From a virus (taxonomy: Duplodnaviria > Heunggongvirae > Uroviricota > Caudoviricetes): a stretch of 42,407 bases of DNA. This document shows, piece after piece, positions 1,815 to 41,710 of this stretch. Made by a program: the position numbers and the translations under genes. Position 1 is the stretch's first letter. Every line of letters begins with the position of its first letter. The stretch covers positions 1 to 42,407 of the IMG/VR virus record IMGVR_UViG_2565956608_000007. One strand, given 5' to 3'. The notes beneath the pieces were generated by a model. The model ran no database searches and had not been told where the DNA came from. It saw only the letters and a list, made by a program, of their open reading frames with translations.

Positions 1815-2987
1815 CTACAGCGCGGCTGAAATCGCGGTTTTACCGTCATATTCAGCCAGGTATTTACCGTAGTTGCGGAATATCATTTCCGGCCCTTTGT
1901 GGCCCATCTGTCCGGCAAGCCAGAATAGGTTAACGCCCTGGCTAATATGCTTGGTGGCGAATGTGTGCCGCGTCTGGTACGGGTTACGATAGCGCACGCC
2001 AGCTTTTTTCAGGGTCGGCACCCATGCTTTTTTACGGATAGCGTCGGCGTTCGCCCAGGGGTCTCCCGTTTTCGGGTCGCTGAATATGAACTCACTTTTC
2101 ATGAAGGTGTATTGCTTCTGCGCCTGCAGGGCCGCCAGCGCCTCACTGTTCAGCTCCACCTTTCGGGTACCGGCTTTTGTCTTGGTGCCTTTAAGTACCC
2201 CTACGACACTGGCCGCCTGAACGTGGGCTGTGTTCGCGATGGTGTCGAGATCAGGCCAGCGCAGCGCGCACAGTTCGGAGCTCCGCAGACCGGTATTGAA
2301 AGCAAAGCGGAACAGGTTTTCCCATTCCGGGTACCTGCAGCTCTGGTAAATGGCGAGGGTCTCCGCTGGCGTGAACGGGTCAACCTCGTAATCGTCGGCG
2401 CTCGGGCTGCTGTCGATCACGTGGTACCGGCTGGCGCTGACGAGGGTTACCGGGTTAATGGTCAGCAGGCCATCCGTAACAGCTTCATCGATGGCGCTGC
2501 GCAGAAATGAAAGGTTATTCCTGGTCGTTTTCAGTTTTGTTTTCCGGCTGGCTATCCAGTTTTTAAGGACCGCTGGCGTCAGTTCTGACACGTGGAGTTT
2601 ATGCAGGGCTGACAGCGCCGACAGGCATTTTTCATAACCGTTGATAGTCGACGGGGACAGGTTGCGGTTCTGGCAGATTTTCAGGTACTCGTCCAGGTAA
2701 GACTTTATGTTTTTGGTTTTCTTCACCACCCCGAACAGCTCCAGTTTTTTGGAGTTGGGGAAATATTTCGCATATTCAAAGGTGCCACTGACGATCTGGT
2801 TTTGTATCTCCCCGAGCAGGCGCTCGGCGTACTTAACACCGCGCGCGTTTGCTTCCATTTTGGAGAGGGGCTCCCGGCACAGAACCCCTTTGTATGTGAA
2901 AGTGATAACCAGAGTGTCGCCAGTTTTATGCTGGCGGATGGTTACTCCTCTTGGGAGAGATAATGATCCTTGTTCTTTCTTGCCCAC
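1815..2987 (-). CDS. int: tyrosine integrase (lambda-type site-specific recombinase)
   Basis: 390-aa ORF with C-terminal R..HxxR..Y catalytic signature (RHTFATKHI ... RNYGKY); 3' end abuts attL. Confidence 0.9.
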   Translation of the reverse strand: MGKKEQGSLSLPRGVTIRQHKTGDTLVITFTYKGVLCREPLSKMEANARGVKYAERLLGEIQNQIVSGTFEYAKYFPNSKKLELFGVVKKTKNIKSYLDEYLKICQNRNLSPSTINGYEKCLSALSALHKLHVSELTPAVLKNWIASRKTKLKTTRNNLSFLRSAIDEAVTDGLLTINPVTLVSASRYHVIDSSPSADDYEVDPFTPAETLAIYQSCRYPEWENLFRFAFNTGLRSSELCALRWPDLDTIANTAHVQAASVVGVLKGTKTKAGTRKVELNSEALAALQAQKQYTFMKSEFIFSDPKTGDPWANADAIRKKAWVPTLKKAGVRYRNPYQTRHTFATKHISQGVNLFWLAGQMGHKGPEMIFRNYGKYLAEYDGKTAISAAL

Positions 2988-14405: not shown

Positions 14406-14556
14406 GGTTGTAGACACGGCTTGCGACTGGGTTAAACCCATCTACGGAACGGATCACGACTGGGATGTGCTGGACCGCCAGACGAAGAAAGACATCCTGG
14501 CGCATAACAAAACGTGGCAGGTGAACTGCCAAAAGGAGAAAGTCGATTTGAAGTAG
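14326..14556 (+). CDS. o-spanin (Rz1-like lipoprotein)
   Basis: Signal peptide with lipobox-like IVSC; begins inside the i-spanin gene in another frame and extends past it. Confidence 0.6.
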   Translation: MYSRPLTICLAMMLIVSCAQTGPVKVEVVDTACDWVKPIYGTDHDWDVLDRQTKKDILAHNKTWQVNCQKEKVDLK

Positions 14557-15234
14557 TAAAGCGGATAGACCGCCGCCGAAAGGTAATGCAGCAGTCATGA
14601 TGCTGCCCCGAGTCGCGTAATGGCGAGCAGGTATAGCAGACAGTTGTGAGGGTAAGTAAGGGAACATGCTCCGGTAAAGCAGCACGAACGCCATACGCGC
14701 ACCGGTTATCAGCGGCTAATAAGCGACAGAGACTCAAGGGCATGAGCGTGGCCACTTCGGGTAGTGGCAGCCATTACAAAGCTCACCTGCTGGTGGGCTT
14801 GATAATGGTTATAAACATAAGCAGTTTAATCAATCATATGATCATCTTACGCAATTGGATTTCTTCCTGCCCGTTGAGTTGGGCGTACTCCACTAATTGC
14901 TTAATAAGCGATTCTTTGTCATTAGACATCAAGGAAGAAACGTAAAGACCAGTTGTCCATTCAAAAACGCTCACTAAGGATAAGGGCGATTTTCTTGAGT
15001 ACTGATAATTTATTGAGAAGTTATTGCAGATTCTTTTCTTTTCCATGGGGTAAATTTGTACTTAATGCAAATTATCGGCATTTATAATGCTGTAATGGTT
15101 TGAGATAAATGAGTACTTCACTTTGGGTAAAAGATACTTTAGCACCGCTAAAAATAGTAGGATTAATCTTAGATTGTTGTTGTTTTTAGCAAAATATGAA
15201 TAATAAATTCAACTAAACACAACGATAACAACCG

Positions 15235-15684
15235 ATGAAAATTCAATCTATTACAATCGCTTTTCTGGTGGCGATATCGTCACCCTCATACTCAGCCTTT
15301 CAGGAAAGGGAATACAATACCTGGTATCAGAAAGATGCAGTGCTTTACGACATTACGCAGACCTCAGAGGGATTGCCTGTCATGATAAGCATCTCTCAAC
15401 CCGGGAGGGGAGCAGCAAATATGCTGGTGTCCTATATGTCCGATGGCAGTTGTGGAGATAAGAAGGAGTTGCTTAATGTGAATGGGAAGGATGTTCCTGC
15501 AACTTACAGGTGTGTATCGGTCGGGGCAAACAGGATTGAGCACTTTGCAGTTAATGATGCCGAAAAGGTCAATGAGATGGTTAACCACCTCAAGTCAGAT
15601 TTCACTTTGCTGCTTCAGAACGATATCAAAGTCTGGGCTGCGAACATAAAGACGCCGAAGTATGGCATAGCACCAAGATTTTAA
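15235..15684 (+). CDS. secreted protein of unknown function (cargo)
   Basis: 149-aa ORF with N-terminal signal peptide MKIQSITIAFLVAISSPSYSA; sits in a visibly AT-rich segment and is followed by a terminator. Confidence 0.6.
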   Translation: MKIQSITIAFLVAISSPSYSAFQEREYNTWYQKDAVLYDITQTSEGLPVMISISQPGRGAANMLVSYMSDGSCGDKKELLNVNGKDVPATYRCVSVGANRIEHFAVNDAEKVNEMVNHLKSDFTLLLQNDIKVWAANIKTPKYGIAPRF

Positions 15685-15698
15685 ATCGCTATATCTAA

Positions 15699-15718
15699 CC
15701 GCCTGAAGGCGGTTTTTT
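15699..15718 (+). terminator. Rho-independent terminator
   Basis: CCGCC-TGAA-GGCGG followed by TTTTTT. Confidence 0.6.
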
Positions 15719-15736
15719 AATGGCAATAACATTGGT

Positions 15737-15782
15737 TATCCCCTGAAAGGGATAAAGCACTGAATATCCCTTTCAGGGGATA
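15737..15782. repeat. perfect 18-bp inverted repeat (TATCCCCTGAAAGGGATA ... TATCCCTTTCAGGGGATA) with 10-bp spacer
   Basis: Second arm is the exact reverse complement of the first; each arm is itself a near-palindrome. Confidence 0.7.
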
Positions 15783-15787
15783 AATCG

Positions 15788-15811
15788 GCCTCGCAATAGC
15801 GGGGCTTTTTT
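15788..15811 (+). terminator. Rho-independent terminator
   Basis: GCCTCGC-AATA-GCGGGGC followed by TTTTTT. Confidence 0.55.
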
Positions 15812-15849
15812 CTGCGCCTCGTACGCGCATTTCAGAGAGTCTTTCAGTA

Positions 15850-15917
15850 GTGAGCCTGAGGAGCATCGTTAAAGGTGGCGACCTCTCTCGGGCGGTGCTC
15901 CTGTACGACAGGCTCAC
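15850..15917 (+). promoter_or_regulatory. long interrupted inverted repeat in the 5' leader of the cargo operon
   Basis: GTGAGCCTG/AGGAGCA pairs with TGCTCCT/CAGGCTCAC around a ~28-nt loop; ends 5 nt before the AAGGAAA ribosome-binding site. Confidence 0.45.
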
Positions 15918-15934
15918 ACCTTAAAGGAAACGCA

Positions 15935-16363
15935 ATGAAGAAATTTTTCACTGATGCGATAGCAAAAATAACTTTTTACGCGCTGCTCGCCGCTTTGCTA
16001 TTTGCTGTTACTACAGGGGCCGGTTCTTTATTGAGAGTAGTTGCCGCCGCCTACTGGGTGATCGTATTGCTTGGCGCGGTAGTTGGTTTGTTAGCTCTCA
16101 TTATTACGTTTGGTGTCGAGTATTCAAAGGATGATAAGTCCAGGCGGGAGGGTATTGAATACCTTGAACGCTTTGCTAAGCGCAAGAACGCAATAGCAAG
16201 AGTATGGGGATGGTTCTGCCTGGTGCTGGGTGCTTCCATGCTTGCATACGGTGGGTGGGTGTTTACAGCGGTAGCCTACGTAATAGCGTCATTGTTTGTG
16301 CGCCTGTGCTGTTCGCTTGCTCGTGATAAGGTCGAGAAACTAACCAAAAAAGAGGTGGCTTGA
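15935..16363 (+). CDS. integral membrane protein of unknown function
   Basis: 142-aa ORF from ATG 15935, about four hydrophobic segments. Confidence 0.6.
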   Translation: MKKFFTDAIAKITFYALLAALLFAVTTGAGSLLRVVAAAYWVIVLLGAVVGLLALIITFGVEYSKDDKSRREGIEYLERFAKRKNAIARVWGWFCLVLGASMLAYGGWVFTAVAYVIASLFVRLCCSLARDKVEKLTKKEVA

Positions 16364-16548
16364 TGGCTCGCTTAAATGTCGAAGTAATCCCGCCGAGTAA
16401 TGAGCAAATAAACCAGGTGATTGAAGAAATAAGCCGGAAATACGCACGTAAGCCACTTACTCCGCAGATCGAAGGCGAGCTCCAGCGTGAAGCTGCTCGA
16501 CTGGTGCGCCGGTTTACAAAAACGAAAGTTACTTTAGTGAGAGATTAA
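16360..16548 (+). CDS. small hypothetical protein
   Basis: 62-aa ORF, start overlaps upstream stop. Confidence 0.5.
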   Translation: MMARLNVEVIPPSNEQINQVIEEISRKYARKPLTPQIEGELQREAARLVRRFTKTKVTLVRD

Positions 16549-16552
16549 CTCG

Positions 16553-16957
16553 ATGAAAAAAATAACTGTCACGGTATCGGGTATTTCTCCATTTGTAATG
16601 GAAGTGGACTATCGCCCGGAAAAAAGTGAATTAGGTAATATTCTTCGAGCTCTTTCATGCGCAGCTGAAATTGTTTCAAGAGAGGCGGTGAAAATCGGCG
16701 AGGAAATACCCGTGGATATACTTCGTGAAACTGAATCATCCTTTCATTTAACAGATTGTGAACCTGCCGACACCGGGAAAACCGTTTATGAGGCAGTTTT
16801 TGAACTGAATGATGGTAAAAAAATCCTCGGCTATTCGGATCAAGACCAACCGAAGGCGAACGGAGAATATTACCACTGTGCAGCTACCAAAGACATGAAA
16901 GGGCGAGTTATCGTAGTGGCTAAATATGTCACTAATTTCCGTTTTACTCCGCTTTAA
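16553..16957 (+). CDS. hypothetical protein
   Basis: 134-aa ORF 5 nt after the previous stop; same operon. Confidence 0.6.
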   Translation: MKKITVTVSGISPFVMEVDYRPEKSELGNILRALSCAAEIVSREAVKIGEEIPVDILRETESSFHLTDCEPADTGKTVYEAVFELNDGKKILGYSDQDQPKANGEYYHCAATKDMKGRVIVVAKYVTNFRFTPL

Positions 16958-17024
16958 AGCTGATATTACAGGAGCCCTTCACTGAGGGGCTTCGATAATG
17001 TTTTTTGAGTGAGGATTGTTCAGA

Positions 17025-18029
17025 ATGGCTTCGATAAAAGAATCCACTGATGCCAATGGACAATCAAAATATTACGTCCACTGGAAGGATGAAAAATCCG
17101 GTCATGGACGCCGCCGCATTTTTAAGAATATTGATGATGCCGCACATCTTTTCTGGCAAAAACAGAATATCGAGCTGGATTGTCGAACTGCCAGCTGGAC
17201 CGGAATAGACCATTCCTGGACTTTCCGAAAGTTAATTCTGTTTTATCTGGGGTATCAGGCCGGCAAGCTGGAAAAAAATATCATACGGCTGTCGTCATAT
17301 ACGAAATGCCGTCACGATCTTCTCGCGGTAGACGGGCCGATACTGGAAAAAAATATTCTCCATATCAGCCATCGTGATATCGGTGATTCGGTTCGCACCG
17401 GCTGCCATCGCTGGATTCGTTCGGCTTTCTTCCTGCTGGTGGAAAAACGACTCATCGCTTTTAACCCTGTTGACCGTCCCGCGCGCCGGAAGCGTCGACC
17501 CATCACCATACCGCCATCATCATCGGTCAGGGAGCTACTGAATAACGCGCCAGTTCGTGAGCGTATCGCGTGCTGGCTCGGGATTTGTGGCCTGCGAATC
17601 GGTGAGGCTCTGGCGGTTACGTATAACGACGTGTCAGCCGACTGGATCGACATCCGGGGGCATGTTGTTGACGGCGTTATACATGAGGGGCTGAAAAGAG
17701 GAGTGGAGCGCCGGGTACGGATGCCGCGTGAGCTTTTCGCGTTGCTGGATAAAAGTAAACTCGGTACCTCTGAGCCTCTTATCTGCAACCAGTTTACCGG
17801 CACATGCCTCGCTACCAGCTACGGCACTCAGGGCGTTCTCGTCAGAACCCTGAACGACTATGGCATTAAGCGATTCCATCATCTTCGCCACTTTGCTGTA
17901 TCTCGCCTGGCAAACAAAGGCGTCGATATCCTGAAGGTTTCCCGACTTATTGGGCATTCGAACATCAAAACCACAATGGACGTTTACGGTCACCTGTTCG
18001 GTGAAGTGGTGGAGATGGATTTGGACTGA
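17025..18029 (+). CDS. second tyrosine recombinase / integrase embedded in the prophage
   Basis: C-terminal HHLRHFAVSRLANKGVDILKVSRLIGHSNIKTTMDVYGHL (HxxR ... Y signature); GAGGA ribosome-binding site. Confidence 0.85.
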   Translation: MASIKESTDANGQSKYYVHWKDEKSGHGRRRIFKNIDDAAHLFWQKQNIELDCRTASWTGIDHSWTFRKLILFYLGYQAGKLEKNIIRLSSYTKCRHDLLAVDGPILEKNILHISHRDIGDSVRTGCHRWIRSAFFLLVEKRLIAFNPVDRPARRKRRPITIPPSSSVRELLNNAPVRERIACWLGICGLRIGEALAVTYNDVSADWIDIRGHVVDGVIHEGLKRGVERRVRMPRELFALLDKSKLGTSEPLICNQFTGTCLATSYGTQGVLVRTLNDYGIKRFHHLRHFAVSRLANKGVDILKVSRLIGHSNIKTTMDVYGHLFGEVVEMDLD

Positions 18030-18033
18030 GTTA

Positions 18034-18067
18034 TCCACATAGTGGAAATATTAGGGCGATCCACTAT
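18034..18067. repeat. TCCAC-containing near-palindrome (TCCACataGTGGA) and extra TCCAC half-site just 3' of the second recombinase
   Basis: Read directly; starts 5 bp after the recombinase stop. Confidence 0.4.
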
Positions 18068-18121
18068 CTCCCCATTCTGCGCGGCCTCCGGTCATTAAAT
18101 CGCAGTTTTCCCGAAAAAAAG

Positions 18122-18215
18122 GATATGCCGCATTTTTACCCCCTCTGATATGCCGCACTTGGCACCAGAGAGGACGCGGCCTGCACGCCAGAATTTACCG
18201 CGTGATACGCCGCAC
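18122..18215. repeat. three direct repeats of GATAYGCCGCA upstream of terS
   Basis: Copies at 18122, 18147 and 18204, spaced 25 and 57 bp. Confidence 0.6.
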
Positions 18216-18273
18216 CCGGATCGGAGAAATTGGATTTTGAACAAAAAATAATCACATTGACTTAGGCGGAAGT

Positions 18274-18876: not shown

Positions 18877-19022
18877 AAATTGCAAAAACAGGCGTTTCGA
18901 ACCGTAAAAACGCTATGCACTTTTTGACCCGTTTTATGCACGTTTTATTCATCCCGATTTGACCACTTTTCTGTTCAAAACAGAGGCTTCACGCCGTTTG
19001 CGTGATGGGTGCTGTTGCGCCA

Positions 19023-19073
19023 GTGCGGGTAACGACCATTATGTTAAATCGGGGCGTTTTTGAGGAATTTTTC
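19023..19073 (+). promoter_or_regulatory. conserved ~50-bp element, copy 1 (GTGCGGGTAA-N6-TTATGTTAAAT ...) upstream of terL
   Basis: Near-identical to 22918-22968; contains ATG of a short MLN... uORF. Confidence 0.5.
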
Positions 19074-20691
19074 TGTGCCGATCCCGTTCCCCTTTGACTT
19101 CCGCAAACCGGACTATACCGCCGTGTTTGAGTGGAGAATGGAGAGGCTGGAGCGGATCAGGAAAGCGCCTGAAATGCTTCCGGCACTCCGTGAGTTTTAC
19201 CGCACTAACCCGGCTCAGTTCATCATCGACTGGGGTATGACGACGGACCCGCGTAACCTCGATTATGGCCTGCCTGCCACCATCCCGTTTTTGCTGTTCC
19301 CCCGCCAGGAGGAATGGATTAACTGGATCATGGACAGGCGCGCAAGTCTTGAGCATGGACTGACAGAAAAAAGCCGCGAAATGGGGCTGAGCTGGACCTC
19401 TATCGGTCTGGCCTGTTCGCTTTGCCTGTTCAACAAAGAAATGGTGATCGGGTTCGGTTCCCGTAAAGAGGAATATGTCGATAGCACCGGCGACCCGAAA
19501 GCGCTGTTCTGGAAGGCACGGAAGTTTGTCGAGCTGCTGCCGGTTGAGTTTCGCGGTTCATGGAGTGACAAAAAACATGCCCCTTACATGCGCGTGGAGT
19601 TCCCGGAAACGGGCGCGGTCATTAAGGGAGAGGCTGGCGATAACATTGGCCGTGGTGACCGTACCACGCTTTATTTCGTGGATGAGTCGGCATTTCTCAA
19701 ACGGCCATTACTCATCGATGCTGCGCTCTCTCAGACGACCCGCTGCCGTATAGACCTCTCATCCGTCAACGGCATGAATAACCCGTTTGCCCGTAAGCGC
19801 CACAGCGGAAATATCCCGGTGTTTACGTTCCACTGGCGCAGCGACCCGCGCAAGGATGATGAGTGGTACCGCAACGAATGTCTGAAAATTGATGATCCGA
19901 TTATCGTTGCTCAGGAACTGGACCTGAACTACAGCGCATCCACAGAGGGGATCCTCATTCCTTCTGAATGGGTGCAGGCTGCCGTCGATGCGCATATCAA
20001 ACTGGGTATTCAGCCCAGTGGCCAGCGCCTCGGCGCAATGGATATCGCAGACGAAGGGAAAGACAAAAACGGCTTTTCTTGCCGCTATGGCTTCCTTCTG
20101 CAGAACGTTCACGAATGGTCTGGCATTGGCAGCGACATCTACGCTTCTGTCGTTAAATCGTTTGGGTACTGTGACGATTACGGTCTGGATGAGTTCCGTT
20201 TCGATGAGGACGGTCTGGGTGCTGGTGCGCGTGGCGATGCTCGCGTGATAAACGAGCTCAGGCAGGCTGAAGGCCGGGGAACAATCACAGCTACGCCTTT
20301 CCGTGGTAGCGGTAGCGTATTCGATCCGGAAGATGAAGCCGTCCCTGGTGATAACGGTAAAGCGGCGCGCCTGAATAAAGACTTCTTCGCGAACGCGAAA
20401 GCACAGAGCTGGTGGCATCTTCGCAAGCTGTTTCGAAACACCTTCCGCGCGCTGAACGGGATGGACTACAACCCCGACGAAATCATTTCGATAAGCAGCG
20501 AGATAGAAAATATTGACCGCCTGCTGATGGAGCTTTCACAGCCTACATGGTCGAAAAACGCCGTCGGTAAAATCCTCGTGGATAAACAGCCGGAAGGTAC
20601 AAAATCGCCGAACCTCGCCGACGCCGTGATGATTAACTACGCGCCGATGGATTCCTCTCTTGATAATTGGGCCAAACTGGCCGGAGCGTGA
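19060..20691 (+). CDS. terminase large subunit
   Basis: 543-aa ORF with ATPase Walker B-like YFVDE and nuclease region; TTG start from the ORF track, true start uncertain. Confidence 0.85.
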
Positions 20692-41347: not shown

Positions 41348-41710
41348 TGGTGGAGCTGGCGGGAGTTGAACCCGCGTCCGAAATTCCTACATCCTCGGTA
41401 CTACATGCTTAGTCAGTCTTTACATTCGCTTGCCAGCTGCGGACGGACACGCCACTAACAAACTAGCCTGATTAAGTTTTAACGCTTCAACCCCAGGCAG
41501 GGCTTCCACGCGATCTCTTTTGGGTTTGACCTCTCTTGATCCCCGTCCTAAGAGCGGAGGCTAGGGAGAGAGGGCTCTAAGCAGGTTATTAAGCTGCTAA
41601 AGCGTAGTTTTCGTCGTTTGCGACTATTTTTTGCGGCTTTTTACGAGGCCAACCGCCCCTCGGCATGCACCTTGGGTTTCGCAAATCCCGTCGAATCCAG
41701 AATCAGCCCC
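41348..41710 (-). ncRNA. ssrA: tmRNA (transfer-messenger RNA, SsrA)
   Basis: Minus-strand sequence begins GGGGCTGATTCTGGATTCGACGGG and ends ...GGTTCAACTCCCGCCAGCTCCACCA; 363 nt; directly downstream of smpB. Confidence 0.95.
41355..41384. repeat. attR core inside ssrA (GCTGGCGGGAGTTGAACCCGCGTCCGAAAT)
   Basis: 29/30 identical to 1663-1692. Confidence 0.65.

Follow-up and report, generated by a model that had tools for sequence, protein, structure and literature searches.

In phage P1 the DNA is cyclised by Cre/loxP recombination near pac, Cre being a recombinase of two domains that is expressed early or constitutively and acts on a 34-bp site several kb from pac. The terminal repeats of P1 must recombine for circularisation, and monomer circles of phage lambda need recombination into dimers or concatemers before packaging (bioRxiv 10.1101/2021.07.08.451572). 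In the present study a tyrosine recombinase gene upstream of terS, the gene of the small terminase (TerS), was analyzed in the IMG/VR virus record IMGVR_UViG_2565956608_000007 (Caudoviricetes), of which the whole stretch of 42,407 nucleotides is referred to as the window. An earlier note on this DNA had taken the gene for a possible nested integrative element, a cargo-capturing recombinase or an inversion or resolution system. It is argued here that the recombinase is very probably a conserved component of a packaging module, whose function is proposed more tentatively. The association of such a recombinase with TerS is unexpected, very strong at the genomic level and apparently undescribed: no description of a link between recombinase and terminase was found in the searchable literature, the incomplete coverage of which makes this weak evidence of novelty. 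The sole paper found that touches on a member of the family, on phage EKP1, cites the recombinase (‘integrase’) as evidence of lysogeny (PMC9765668).

Conservation of the recombinase upstream of terS

The genes concerned are located in the window as follows.

17025-18029, plus strand: tyrosine recombinase gene, ATG start, 334 aa
18274-18876, plus strand: TerS, with an N-terminal helix-turn-helix (HTH) and a C-terminal tail (weak PHROG TerS and HTH matches)
19060-20691 (left edge approximate), plus strand: TerL, the large terminase (PHROG_2 TerL), probable start GTG 19076
1815-2987, minus strand: canonical separate integrase at the opposite end of the prophage
41348-41710: transfer-messenger RNA (tmRNA); the prophage is integrated at ssrA

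IMG/VR was queried with the recombinase, and 80 loci were obtained, 75 of them with at least 42% identity. A terS homologue follows 248-255 bp downstream of the recombinase in 67 of these 75, and in four more (L012, L052, L059 and L068) insertions in the spacer put terS 296-614 bp downstream, so that the total amounts to 71/75; of the other four loci, one is a scrambled GenBank record and three are copies of a paralogue. When the search was reversed and started from the TerS N-terminal region, a recombinase was present upstream in 72/72 informative loci, and loss of the recombinase was seen in none of them. The order of lysis genes, recombinase, TerS and TerL is also kept in P22-like phages (with P22-type portals and a Terminase_6N or Terminase_3 TerL), in the Yersinia pestis phage-plasmid pTP33, bearer of Rep and ParA, in the Sodalis phage phiSG1, the recombinase of which shows 25% identity and overlaps Rz, on plasmids of Arsenophonus (20 records), Erwinia and Providencia, and in further metagenomic contigs, one of them marine. 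Mu-like-head myoviruses, P22-like phages and phage-plasmids are among the virions and lifestyles in which the module occurs, with a distance between recombinase and terS of 152-372 bp in the deep lineages.

The earlier note had suggested that related prophages be aligned in order to define the limits of an insertion, and had regarded a conserved position without insertion or deletion polymorphism as evidence against its own idea of a nested or cargo-capturing element. This is what the alignment displays. The recombinase occupies the same position in relatives, and the boundary of variation lies at about 16960, before the gene: homology of relatives to the window starts at 16957-17020 in 52/62 loci, in E. 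coli prophages the match sets in at 16958 or 17025, and hence only the upstream morons (14.6-16.95 kb) are variable. No flanking att-like repeats were found around the recombinase. With high probability, therefore, the gene belongs to the packaging module and is not a nested element.

The partner of the recombinase is the TerS family and not TerL, and this holds across TerL, portal, tail type and lifestyle. The N-terminal ~160 aa of TerS are conserved over all recombinase loci, whereas the C-terminal 30-70 aa switch along with the TerL family, of which there are at least four to five clusters, each with its own tail; in relatives terS overlaps the start of terL. The TerL family of the window is found in E. 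coli prophages as well (including one of strain B REL606), there with other TerS types and without the recombinase. A single-sequence AlphaFold (AF2) model of TerS reached a predicted local distance difference test (pLDDT) score of 52 and was unusable.

The earlier note had rightly described the gene as a second complete tyrosine recombinase between the lysis cassette and terS: holin, endolysin, Rz and morons precede it, a TerS-like gene follows, and catalytic residues, Pfam match and fold are all as expected of such an enzyme. Its length was given as 335 aa, which has to be corrected to 334 aa from the ATG start; an alternative start, TTG 17016, would result in 337 aa. The protein matches Pfam Phage_integrase (PF00589) with 57.2 bits against a cutoff of 27.1 and shares 23% identity with the integrase at 1815-2987. 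Its homologues form 60 clusters of 42-97% identity, nearly all of ~334 aa, with hosts among Enterobacter, Citrobacter, Klebsiella, Cedecea, Yokenella, Yersinia and others. In an alignment of 22 homologues (42-100% identity) the residues R191, K224, H285, R288, H311 and Y321 are invariant, and codon positions 1 and 2 are ~80% identical where position 3 is ~43% identical, a contrast that indicates purifying selection on the recombinase. The AF2 model (pLDDT 89) is composed of three parts.

Residues ~1-52: predicted N domain, arm-binding-like, with strands 3-8, 14-21 and 28-33 and helix 36-52
Residues ~65-140: predicted core-binding domain, helical
Residues ~165-325: predicted catalytic domain

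Subtyping by homology and structure, as had been recommended, assigned the modelled protein to the lambda-Int type. Full-length lambda Int and Tn1549 Int are the top fold matches in Foldseek (E ~5e-9), the structural alignment with full-length lambda Int spanning ~360 columns, while Cre structures rank 29th or lower (E ~1e-5). The NCBIfam models of XerC and XerD score 28.3 and 25.4 bits against cutoffs of 335 and 330, and the integron integrase subfamily model scores 35.9 bits against a cutoff of 265. Judged by sequence and predicted fold, the enzyme is an active-looking, three-domain tyrosine recombinase of lambda-Int type; neither its sequence nor its fold ranking places it with Cre, Xer or the integron integrases.

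Several records deserve separate mention. An apparent terS deletion in Yersinia phage YP3 (PV092592.1, ‘complete genome’; L002/L088) is not real, as this GenBank record is scrambled relative to the window and unusable; short intergenic pieces are concatenated in it, some segments are duplicated, and terS stands 14 kb from the recombinase, probably an artefact of assembly or submission. Elizabethkingia phage EKP1 (OM284015.1, L001) and a contig of Chryseobacterium sp. 18061 (L178) contain an enterobacterial-type module with 72-77% recombinase identity; their attribution to Flavobacteriia hosts looks doubtful, and contamination or a misidentified host is possible. In the IMG/VR loci L070-L072 a paralogue of 45% identity (L071 4001-5026) is situated amid tail and baseplate genes, apparently where tandem prophage remnants have fused. 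Behind it come a stretch with homology to the CCGCA-repeat spacer and a 180-aa HTH protein whose relation to the TerS HTH is distant (hhalign E = 5e-4), and these are succeeded by a Panacea-domain antitoxin and a regulator. The paralogue region is possibly a true nested element of small size, or else a remnant of the module.

Phage-plasmids of the pTP33 family, moreover, possess a serine recombinase of ~200 aa (Resolvase and HTH_7 domains) directly after terL, at 14497-15099 in pTP33 (L169) and likewise in L180, L182, L183 and L184-L187; in Providencia it is found between terS and terL. These phage-plasmids thus hold two site-specific recombinases inside the packaging cluster.

The spacer between recombinase and terS

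The spacer measures 244 bp in the window and is of near-fixed length in close relatives. It consists of two blocks of different linkage, joined at a short invariant sequence.

18030-18090, plus strand: recombinase-linked non-coding block, candidate recombinase-binding region
18097-18109, plus strand: invariant 13-mer AAATCGCAGTTTT, the block junction
18111-18273, plus strand: terS-linked non-coding block, putative pac-recognition region
18237-18245, plus strand: invariant TTGAACAAA (from the alignment), upstream of the terS ribosome-binding site, ~30 bp before the terS start

In an alignment of 59 unique versions of the region, giving 1,711 pairs that are not independent events, the left block follows the 3' end of the recombinase gene (r = 0.84, no discordant pairs) and the right block the 5' end of terS (r = 0.86). 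The correlation of the right block with the recombinase is only r = 0.15, the left and right halves of the spacer show hardly any mutual dependence (r ~0.15), and recombinase and terS variants reassort freely (r ~0.15-0.44). Both halves are under selection: the left block is 78-92% identical where third positions of the recombinase are 39-49% identical, and the right block 84-95% where those of terS are 62-73%.

With 53-100% recombinase identity, the 13-mer at the junction is 100% conserved in almost every lineage, and it reads AAATCACAG or AAATTACAG at 33-38% identity. For the mapping of breakpoints 239 pairs with a sharp change of similarity qualified. Maximum-likelihood breakpoints fall at 18110-18119, the right edge of the 13-mer, in 172 of the 239, and the commonest open crossover interval is 18097-18109, with exactly these bounds in 75/239 pairs. 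Save for a minority of pairs with breakpoints inside terS, all open intervals lie within 18056-18119, and the crossover can be bounded only to this stretch because the flanking sequence is too conserved.

The right block contains three direct repeats.

18122-18132, plus strand: direct repeat 1 GATATGCCGCA, predicted TerS site
18147-18157, plus strand: direct repeat 2 GATATGCCGCA, predicted TerS site
18204-18214, plus strand: direct repeat 3 GATACGCCGCA, predicted TerS site

These GATAYGCCGCA repeats had been correctly reported in the earlier note, and the exact motif occurs in no other place in the 42 kb window; in other lineages an inverted fourth copy follows just downstream of repeat 3, and in the window this fourth copy is degenerate. 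Phages with 97-99% identical recombinases carry either of two repeat families, GCCGCA or TCCGCA, and the type of repeat varies together with a single residue in the recognition helix of TerS, DExTIR(R/N)W: T at this position goes with GCCGCA, A or G (together with N) with TCCGCA, and I with GTCGCA. Taken together, the co-variation of repeat and helix, a signature of co-evolving specificity between protein and DNA, and the linkage to terS argue for a pac-recognition array and against arm-type sites of the recombinase, and it is probable from these sequence comparisons that the repeats are TerS sites. The core and arm layout that had been assumed 3' of the stop codon is consequently retained in part: the cis block with the palindrome described below is selected and inherited with the recombinase, whereas the repeats are linked to terS (r = 0.86 versus 0.15). 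An extra TerS-like HTH reading frame of ~110 aa is present in L059 and L068 between the invariant 13-mer and full-length terS; it has S in the helix and TTCCGAG repeats of its own (motif TCCGAG), so that two tandem pac-recognition units result.

Further elements of the spacer were also noted. The invariant TTGAACAAA is kept in all lineages of 53-100% recombinase identity although its surroundings follow the TerS type, and it is possibly a promoter element or a site for a host factor. A structured RNA was not indicated in the spacer, with no Rfam match at E <= 1 and a folding z-score of -1.06. Spacers of phage-plasmids are rich in GATC, with five in 179 bp in Erwinia pETR003-a (L182, 3518-3696) and with AGATCCGATCT in pTP33 (L169, 12294-12471), compared to two in the 244 bp of the window, and recall the Dam-methylation-controlled pac site of P1.

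Within the left block the following elements were distinguished.

18034-18046, palindromic: TCCACATAGTGGA (TCCAC-ATA-GTGGA)
18039-18067, dyad: ATAGTGGA-N13-TCCACTAT, candidate core-type site with perfect 8-bp arms, overlapping the palindrome
18058-18076, plus strand: GATCCACTATCTCCCCATT, nearly invariant in lineages of at least 71% recombinase identity

The TCCAC palindrome and a further half-site, ATCCAC at 18059, are present as described before. The palindrome is the sole match in the window, five of 100 shuffles gave one, and its left arm varies among relatives. The dyad was equalled in 4/500 shuffles. L160, with 33% recombinase identity, has in the corresponding position a perfect 8-N13-8 dyad whose sequence differs, and L068 (42%) shows TCCAC-N13-GTGGA. 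A universal dyad of this kind was rejected, since it is significant in the window and L160 and absent in pTP33, phiSG1, Erwinia and Providencia. For GATCCACTATCTCCCCATT there is a single copy in the window, and 0/100 shuffles produced it.

The recombinase-linked block and the 13-mer occur in one copy each per genome, and no inverted partner site was found, for which reason the inversion system considered in the earlier note is unlikely. An exact-pattern scan covered 100,044 species, each represented by one genome; 8/8 true matches were flanked by recombinase and terS, and no solitary, split or hybrid copy of the site appeared. More than 90 loci from prophages, plasmids and viromes were examined, and the site is intact in each of them. 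Two candidates for additional sites were discarded. GCCGCATTTTTA (17113) and ATGCCGCAC (17137) inside the recombinase gene are a coding coincidence, relatives using other synonymous codons, and TTAAATCG at 19044 before terL, which as a second core would have made terS a site-flanked cassette, is an 8-mer found four times on the plus strand and not conserved. Searches for a second core that tolerated mismatches yielded matches at chance level only.

Proposed role and rival explanations

Taken as a whole, the explanation favoured here, in which the recombinase, its own cis site, the invariant 13-mer, the TerS-binding pac repeats and TerS make up one conserved module of the late operon that prepares DNA for packaging, is given slightly less than even odds, and with slightly more reserve it is proposed that the recombinase acts on phage DNA topology at the origin of packaging. 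With one never-split site per genome, the enzyme should not act as an integrase and would recombine only pairs of the same site, as Cre/loxP and Xer/cer do. The two copies may lie on separate genome copies, in successive concatemer units or in both terminal repeats of a headful, and the enzyme would be made late, alongside the terminase: the recombinase gene starts 35-53 bp after the spanin gene in pTP33, and as neither pTP33 nor phiSG1 has room for a promoter, the enzyme should appear together with the terminase. Unit-length circles might be fused to multimers or separated, by which the headful terminase would gain a substrate longer than one genome; alternatively, DNA whose terminal redundancy contains the site might be cyclised in the manner of Cre/loxP. 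TerS bound to the adjacent repeats may serve as an architectural factor. The site-specific resolution system that the earlier note had listed among its options is compatible with such a role. No Erf, RecT, Red or Gam was recognisable in the window phage; the idea of the recombinase as a stand-in for a missing homologous-recombination module was given up, as pTP33 has RecT and a nuclease and no consistent association exists.

Several points weigh against the proposed role in DNA topology. No recombination product or activity was observed, and homotypic recombination leaves no novel junction in sequence data. The 8-N13-8 dyad is not detectable in several deep lineages. Placement in the late operon fits poorly with cyclisation right after injection, and the formation or resolution of multimers alone needs neither adjacency to pac nor strict coupling to one TerS family. 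Phage-plasmids like pTP33 carry a serine resolvase and a pair of RecT and nuclease in addition, so that the recombinase is there neither the only route of multimer resolution nor a simple substitute for homologous recombination. Furthermore, a site within the terminal redundancy, which depends on the position of the pac cut and on the direction of packaging, is an assumption. As neither multimer handling nor cyclisation alone explains the strict coupling to TerS, a direct role in the pac complex or in cleavage has to be taken as a serious rival.

According to this rival the recombinase is an accessory of packaging initiation, a third part of the complex for recognition and cleavage of pac, by analogy with the HNH endonucleases beside HK97-type terminases, which would bind beside the TerS-wrapped repeats, nick, cleave, swivel or organise the DNA and in this way let several types of TerL begin a headful series. 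The coupling, strict both ways, is to one TerS family and not to TerL; recombinase site and TerS sites share the 244-bp region of near-fixed length in close relatives; the gene layout suggests co-expression with the terminase, the catalytic residues are conserved, informative terS loci without the recombinase are lacking, and in phage-plasmids the serine resolvase makes a resolution role redundant. However, every TerL type found has a nuclease domain of its own, and the same TerL works without the recombinase beside other TerS types. Cleavage by a tyrosine recombinase leads, as is established enzymology, to a 3'-phosphotyrosyl link between protein and DNA and leaves no free end for translocation. 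The spacing is not conserved in the deep lineages (152-372 bp), and the free reassortment of recombinase and terS (r ~0.15-0.44) argues against tight co-adaptation of the two proteins. An accessory of this kind is considered unlikely, and to the same degree it is doubtful that recombinase, pac and TerS form an assembly for headful packaging initiation with the recombinase as an obligate third component, in which strand exchange or cleavage would be coupled to terminase loading and the TerS ring would act as architectural factor in an intasome-like complex. If it were true, it would constitute a new class of packaging machinery common to P22-like phages, Mu-like-head myoviruses and widespread phage-plasmids of Enterobacterales.

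The remaining explanations are weaker still. A selfish recombinase that recombines the conserved junction between co-resident phages, swaps pac and TerS and so spreads the module could account for the almost independent assortment of the spacer halves (r ~0.15), for breakpoints in 18056-18119 that are densest at the invariant 13-mer and for the combination of the module with at least four to five TerL families and three or more virion types; yet homologous or short-homology recombination in the conserved 55-bp zone, with selection for intact units, would look no different, the analysed pairs do not represent independent events, one crossover joining two circles yields no more than a cointegrate, and exchange alone offers no obvious benefit that would maintain the catalytic residues, so that module exchange is improbable. 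Somewhat less credible again is a secondary integrase with the downstream region as attP, for an alternative chromosomal site or for transitions from phage-plasmid to chromosome. The predicted lambda-Int-like three domains with an arm-binding-like N domain would suit it, as would the order of int and then attP, which is typical, and the 45%-identity paralogue outside the packaging module in some prophages. But the site is intact at more than 90 loci, neither a stand-alone nor a hybrid copy turned up in the 100,044 species-representative genomes, the prophage of the window sits at ssrA with an integrase of its own, and the gene is part of the late operon. A domesticated DNA-binding regulator, which no longer recombines and controls the expression of terS or late genes, is highly improbable: its place directly upstream of terS resembles that of RinA-type late activators of Gram-positive phages (PMC3152322), and conserved cis elements lie between recombinase and terS, but all six catalytic residues, the nucleophilic tyrosine among them, stay invariant in homologues as distant as 42% identity and the gene is itself inside the late operon. 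Least probable of all is the reading of the earlier note, a nested integrative element, a cargo-capturing recombinase or an invertase for which the palindrome would be the core and the repeats the arm-type sites. In its favour, lambdoid phages do not usually have a recombinase at this position, the DNA directly before the gene consists of variable morons, and the repeats do exist; however, the gene is on the conserved side of the boundary between variable and conserved DNA, its position is identical in all relatives, the repeats follow TerS, and neither flanking att-like repeats nor an inverted partner site accompany it.

The consequences reach beyond this prophage. A gene annotated as ‘integrase’ and taken as a sign of lysogeny is yet, very probably, part of a packaging module, and the family takes in pTP33 of Y. 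pestis together with many phage-plasmids of Arsenophonus symbionts. If the coupling is functional, site-specific recombination is one more means, besides those already known, by which pac-type phages produce or regain DNA that is circular or fit for packaging. The locus also offers a natural experiment in DNA recognition by TerS, with one helix residue matched to one or two repeat bases, and what appears to be a portable cassette of packaging specificity that moves between unrelated virion types, which bears on transduction, phage-plasmid biology and phage engineering.

Neighbouring genes and known systems

The prophage covers ~39.5 kb of the window. From its left end it shows integrase, CI-like repressor, replication initiator, primase-helicase, Q antiterminator, holin, endolysin, Rz, morons and recombinase, and 3' of the recombinase and terminase genes those for head, tail and baseplate follow. 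The left edge of the conserved module coincides with a hairpin.

16971-16993, plus strand: terminator-like hairpin from the hairpin scan, function putative

Between Rz/Rz1 and the recombinase the moron region, 14600-16957, is the stretch that varies among relatives. It codes for a secreted protein of 149 aa (15235-15684, phrog_30865), contains terminator-like hairpins at 15697-15714 and 15787-15806 and ends with a cluster of three genes (15875-16957), one product of which is a membrane protein. The gap between terS and terL, 18877-19059, is unusually long with ~180-200 bp; terS and terL overlap in relatives whose TerL is of another type. A terminator-like hairpin is located in the gap on the minus strand (18913-18892).

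Among known systems, Cre/loxP of P1 resembles this locus as a phage tyrosine recombinase that is not an integrase, with one site per genome, near pac, in a headful phage-plasmid, and distant members of the present family are common in phage-plasmids. The enzyme differs from Cre in its predicted additional arm-binding-like N domain, which brings it closer to lambda Int, and its gene is in the late operon with a candidate site that abuts the predicted TerS-binding repeats. In its presumed function the system comes closest to Cre/loxP or Xer/cer, with a TerS recognition array joined to it. With lambda Int and other heterobivalent integrases it shares the three-domain fold, the catalytic hexad and the succession of a gene and a complex site of ~240 bp; here, however, an attB partner is lacking, splitting of the site is never seen, another integrase serves the prophage, and the right-hand ‘arm’ repeats belong to TerS, motifs linked to the recombinase being found on the left. 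By analogy, XerCD at cer and psi may be compared as well, where a core site is combined with ~170 bp of one-sided accessory DNA bound by an oligomeric protein, with a possible directionality; the recombinase is not a Xer protein by its NCBIfam scores, and the accessory protein would here be TerS. As predicted TerS sites, the repeats themselves resemble the TerS arrays of lambda (cosB R-sites and gpNu1), SPP1 (pacL, pacR and G1P) and P1 (pac hexamers and PacA) in that short repeats with A/T tracts between them lie at or over the 5' end of terS and their specificity is matched to the TerS HTH. They differ in belonging to the YCCGCA or GTCGCA families and in being fused to a recombinase site. Finally, the HNH endonucleases beside HK97-type terminases are likewise DNA-cleaving enzymes for which the clue to packaging is their invariant adjacency at the boundary of lysis and packaging genes. 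Their fold and chemistry are unrelated, and HNH goes with the types of TerL and portal, whereas the recombinase goes with the N domain of TerS.

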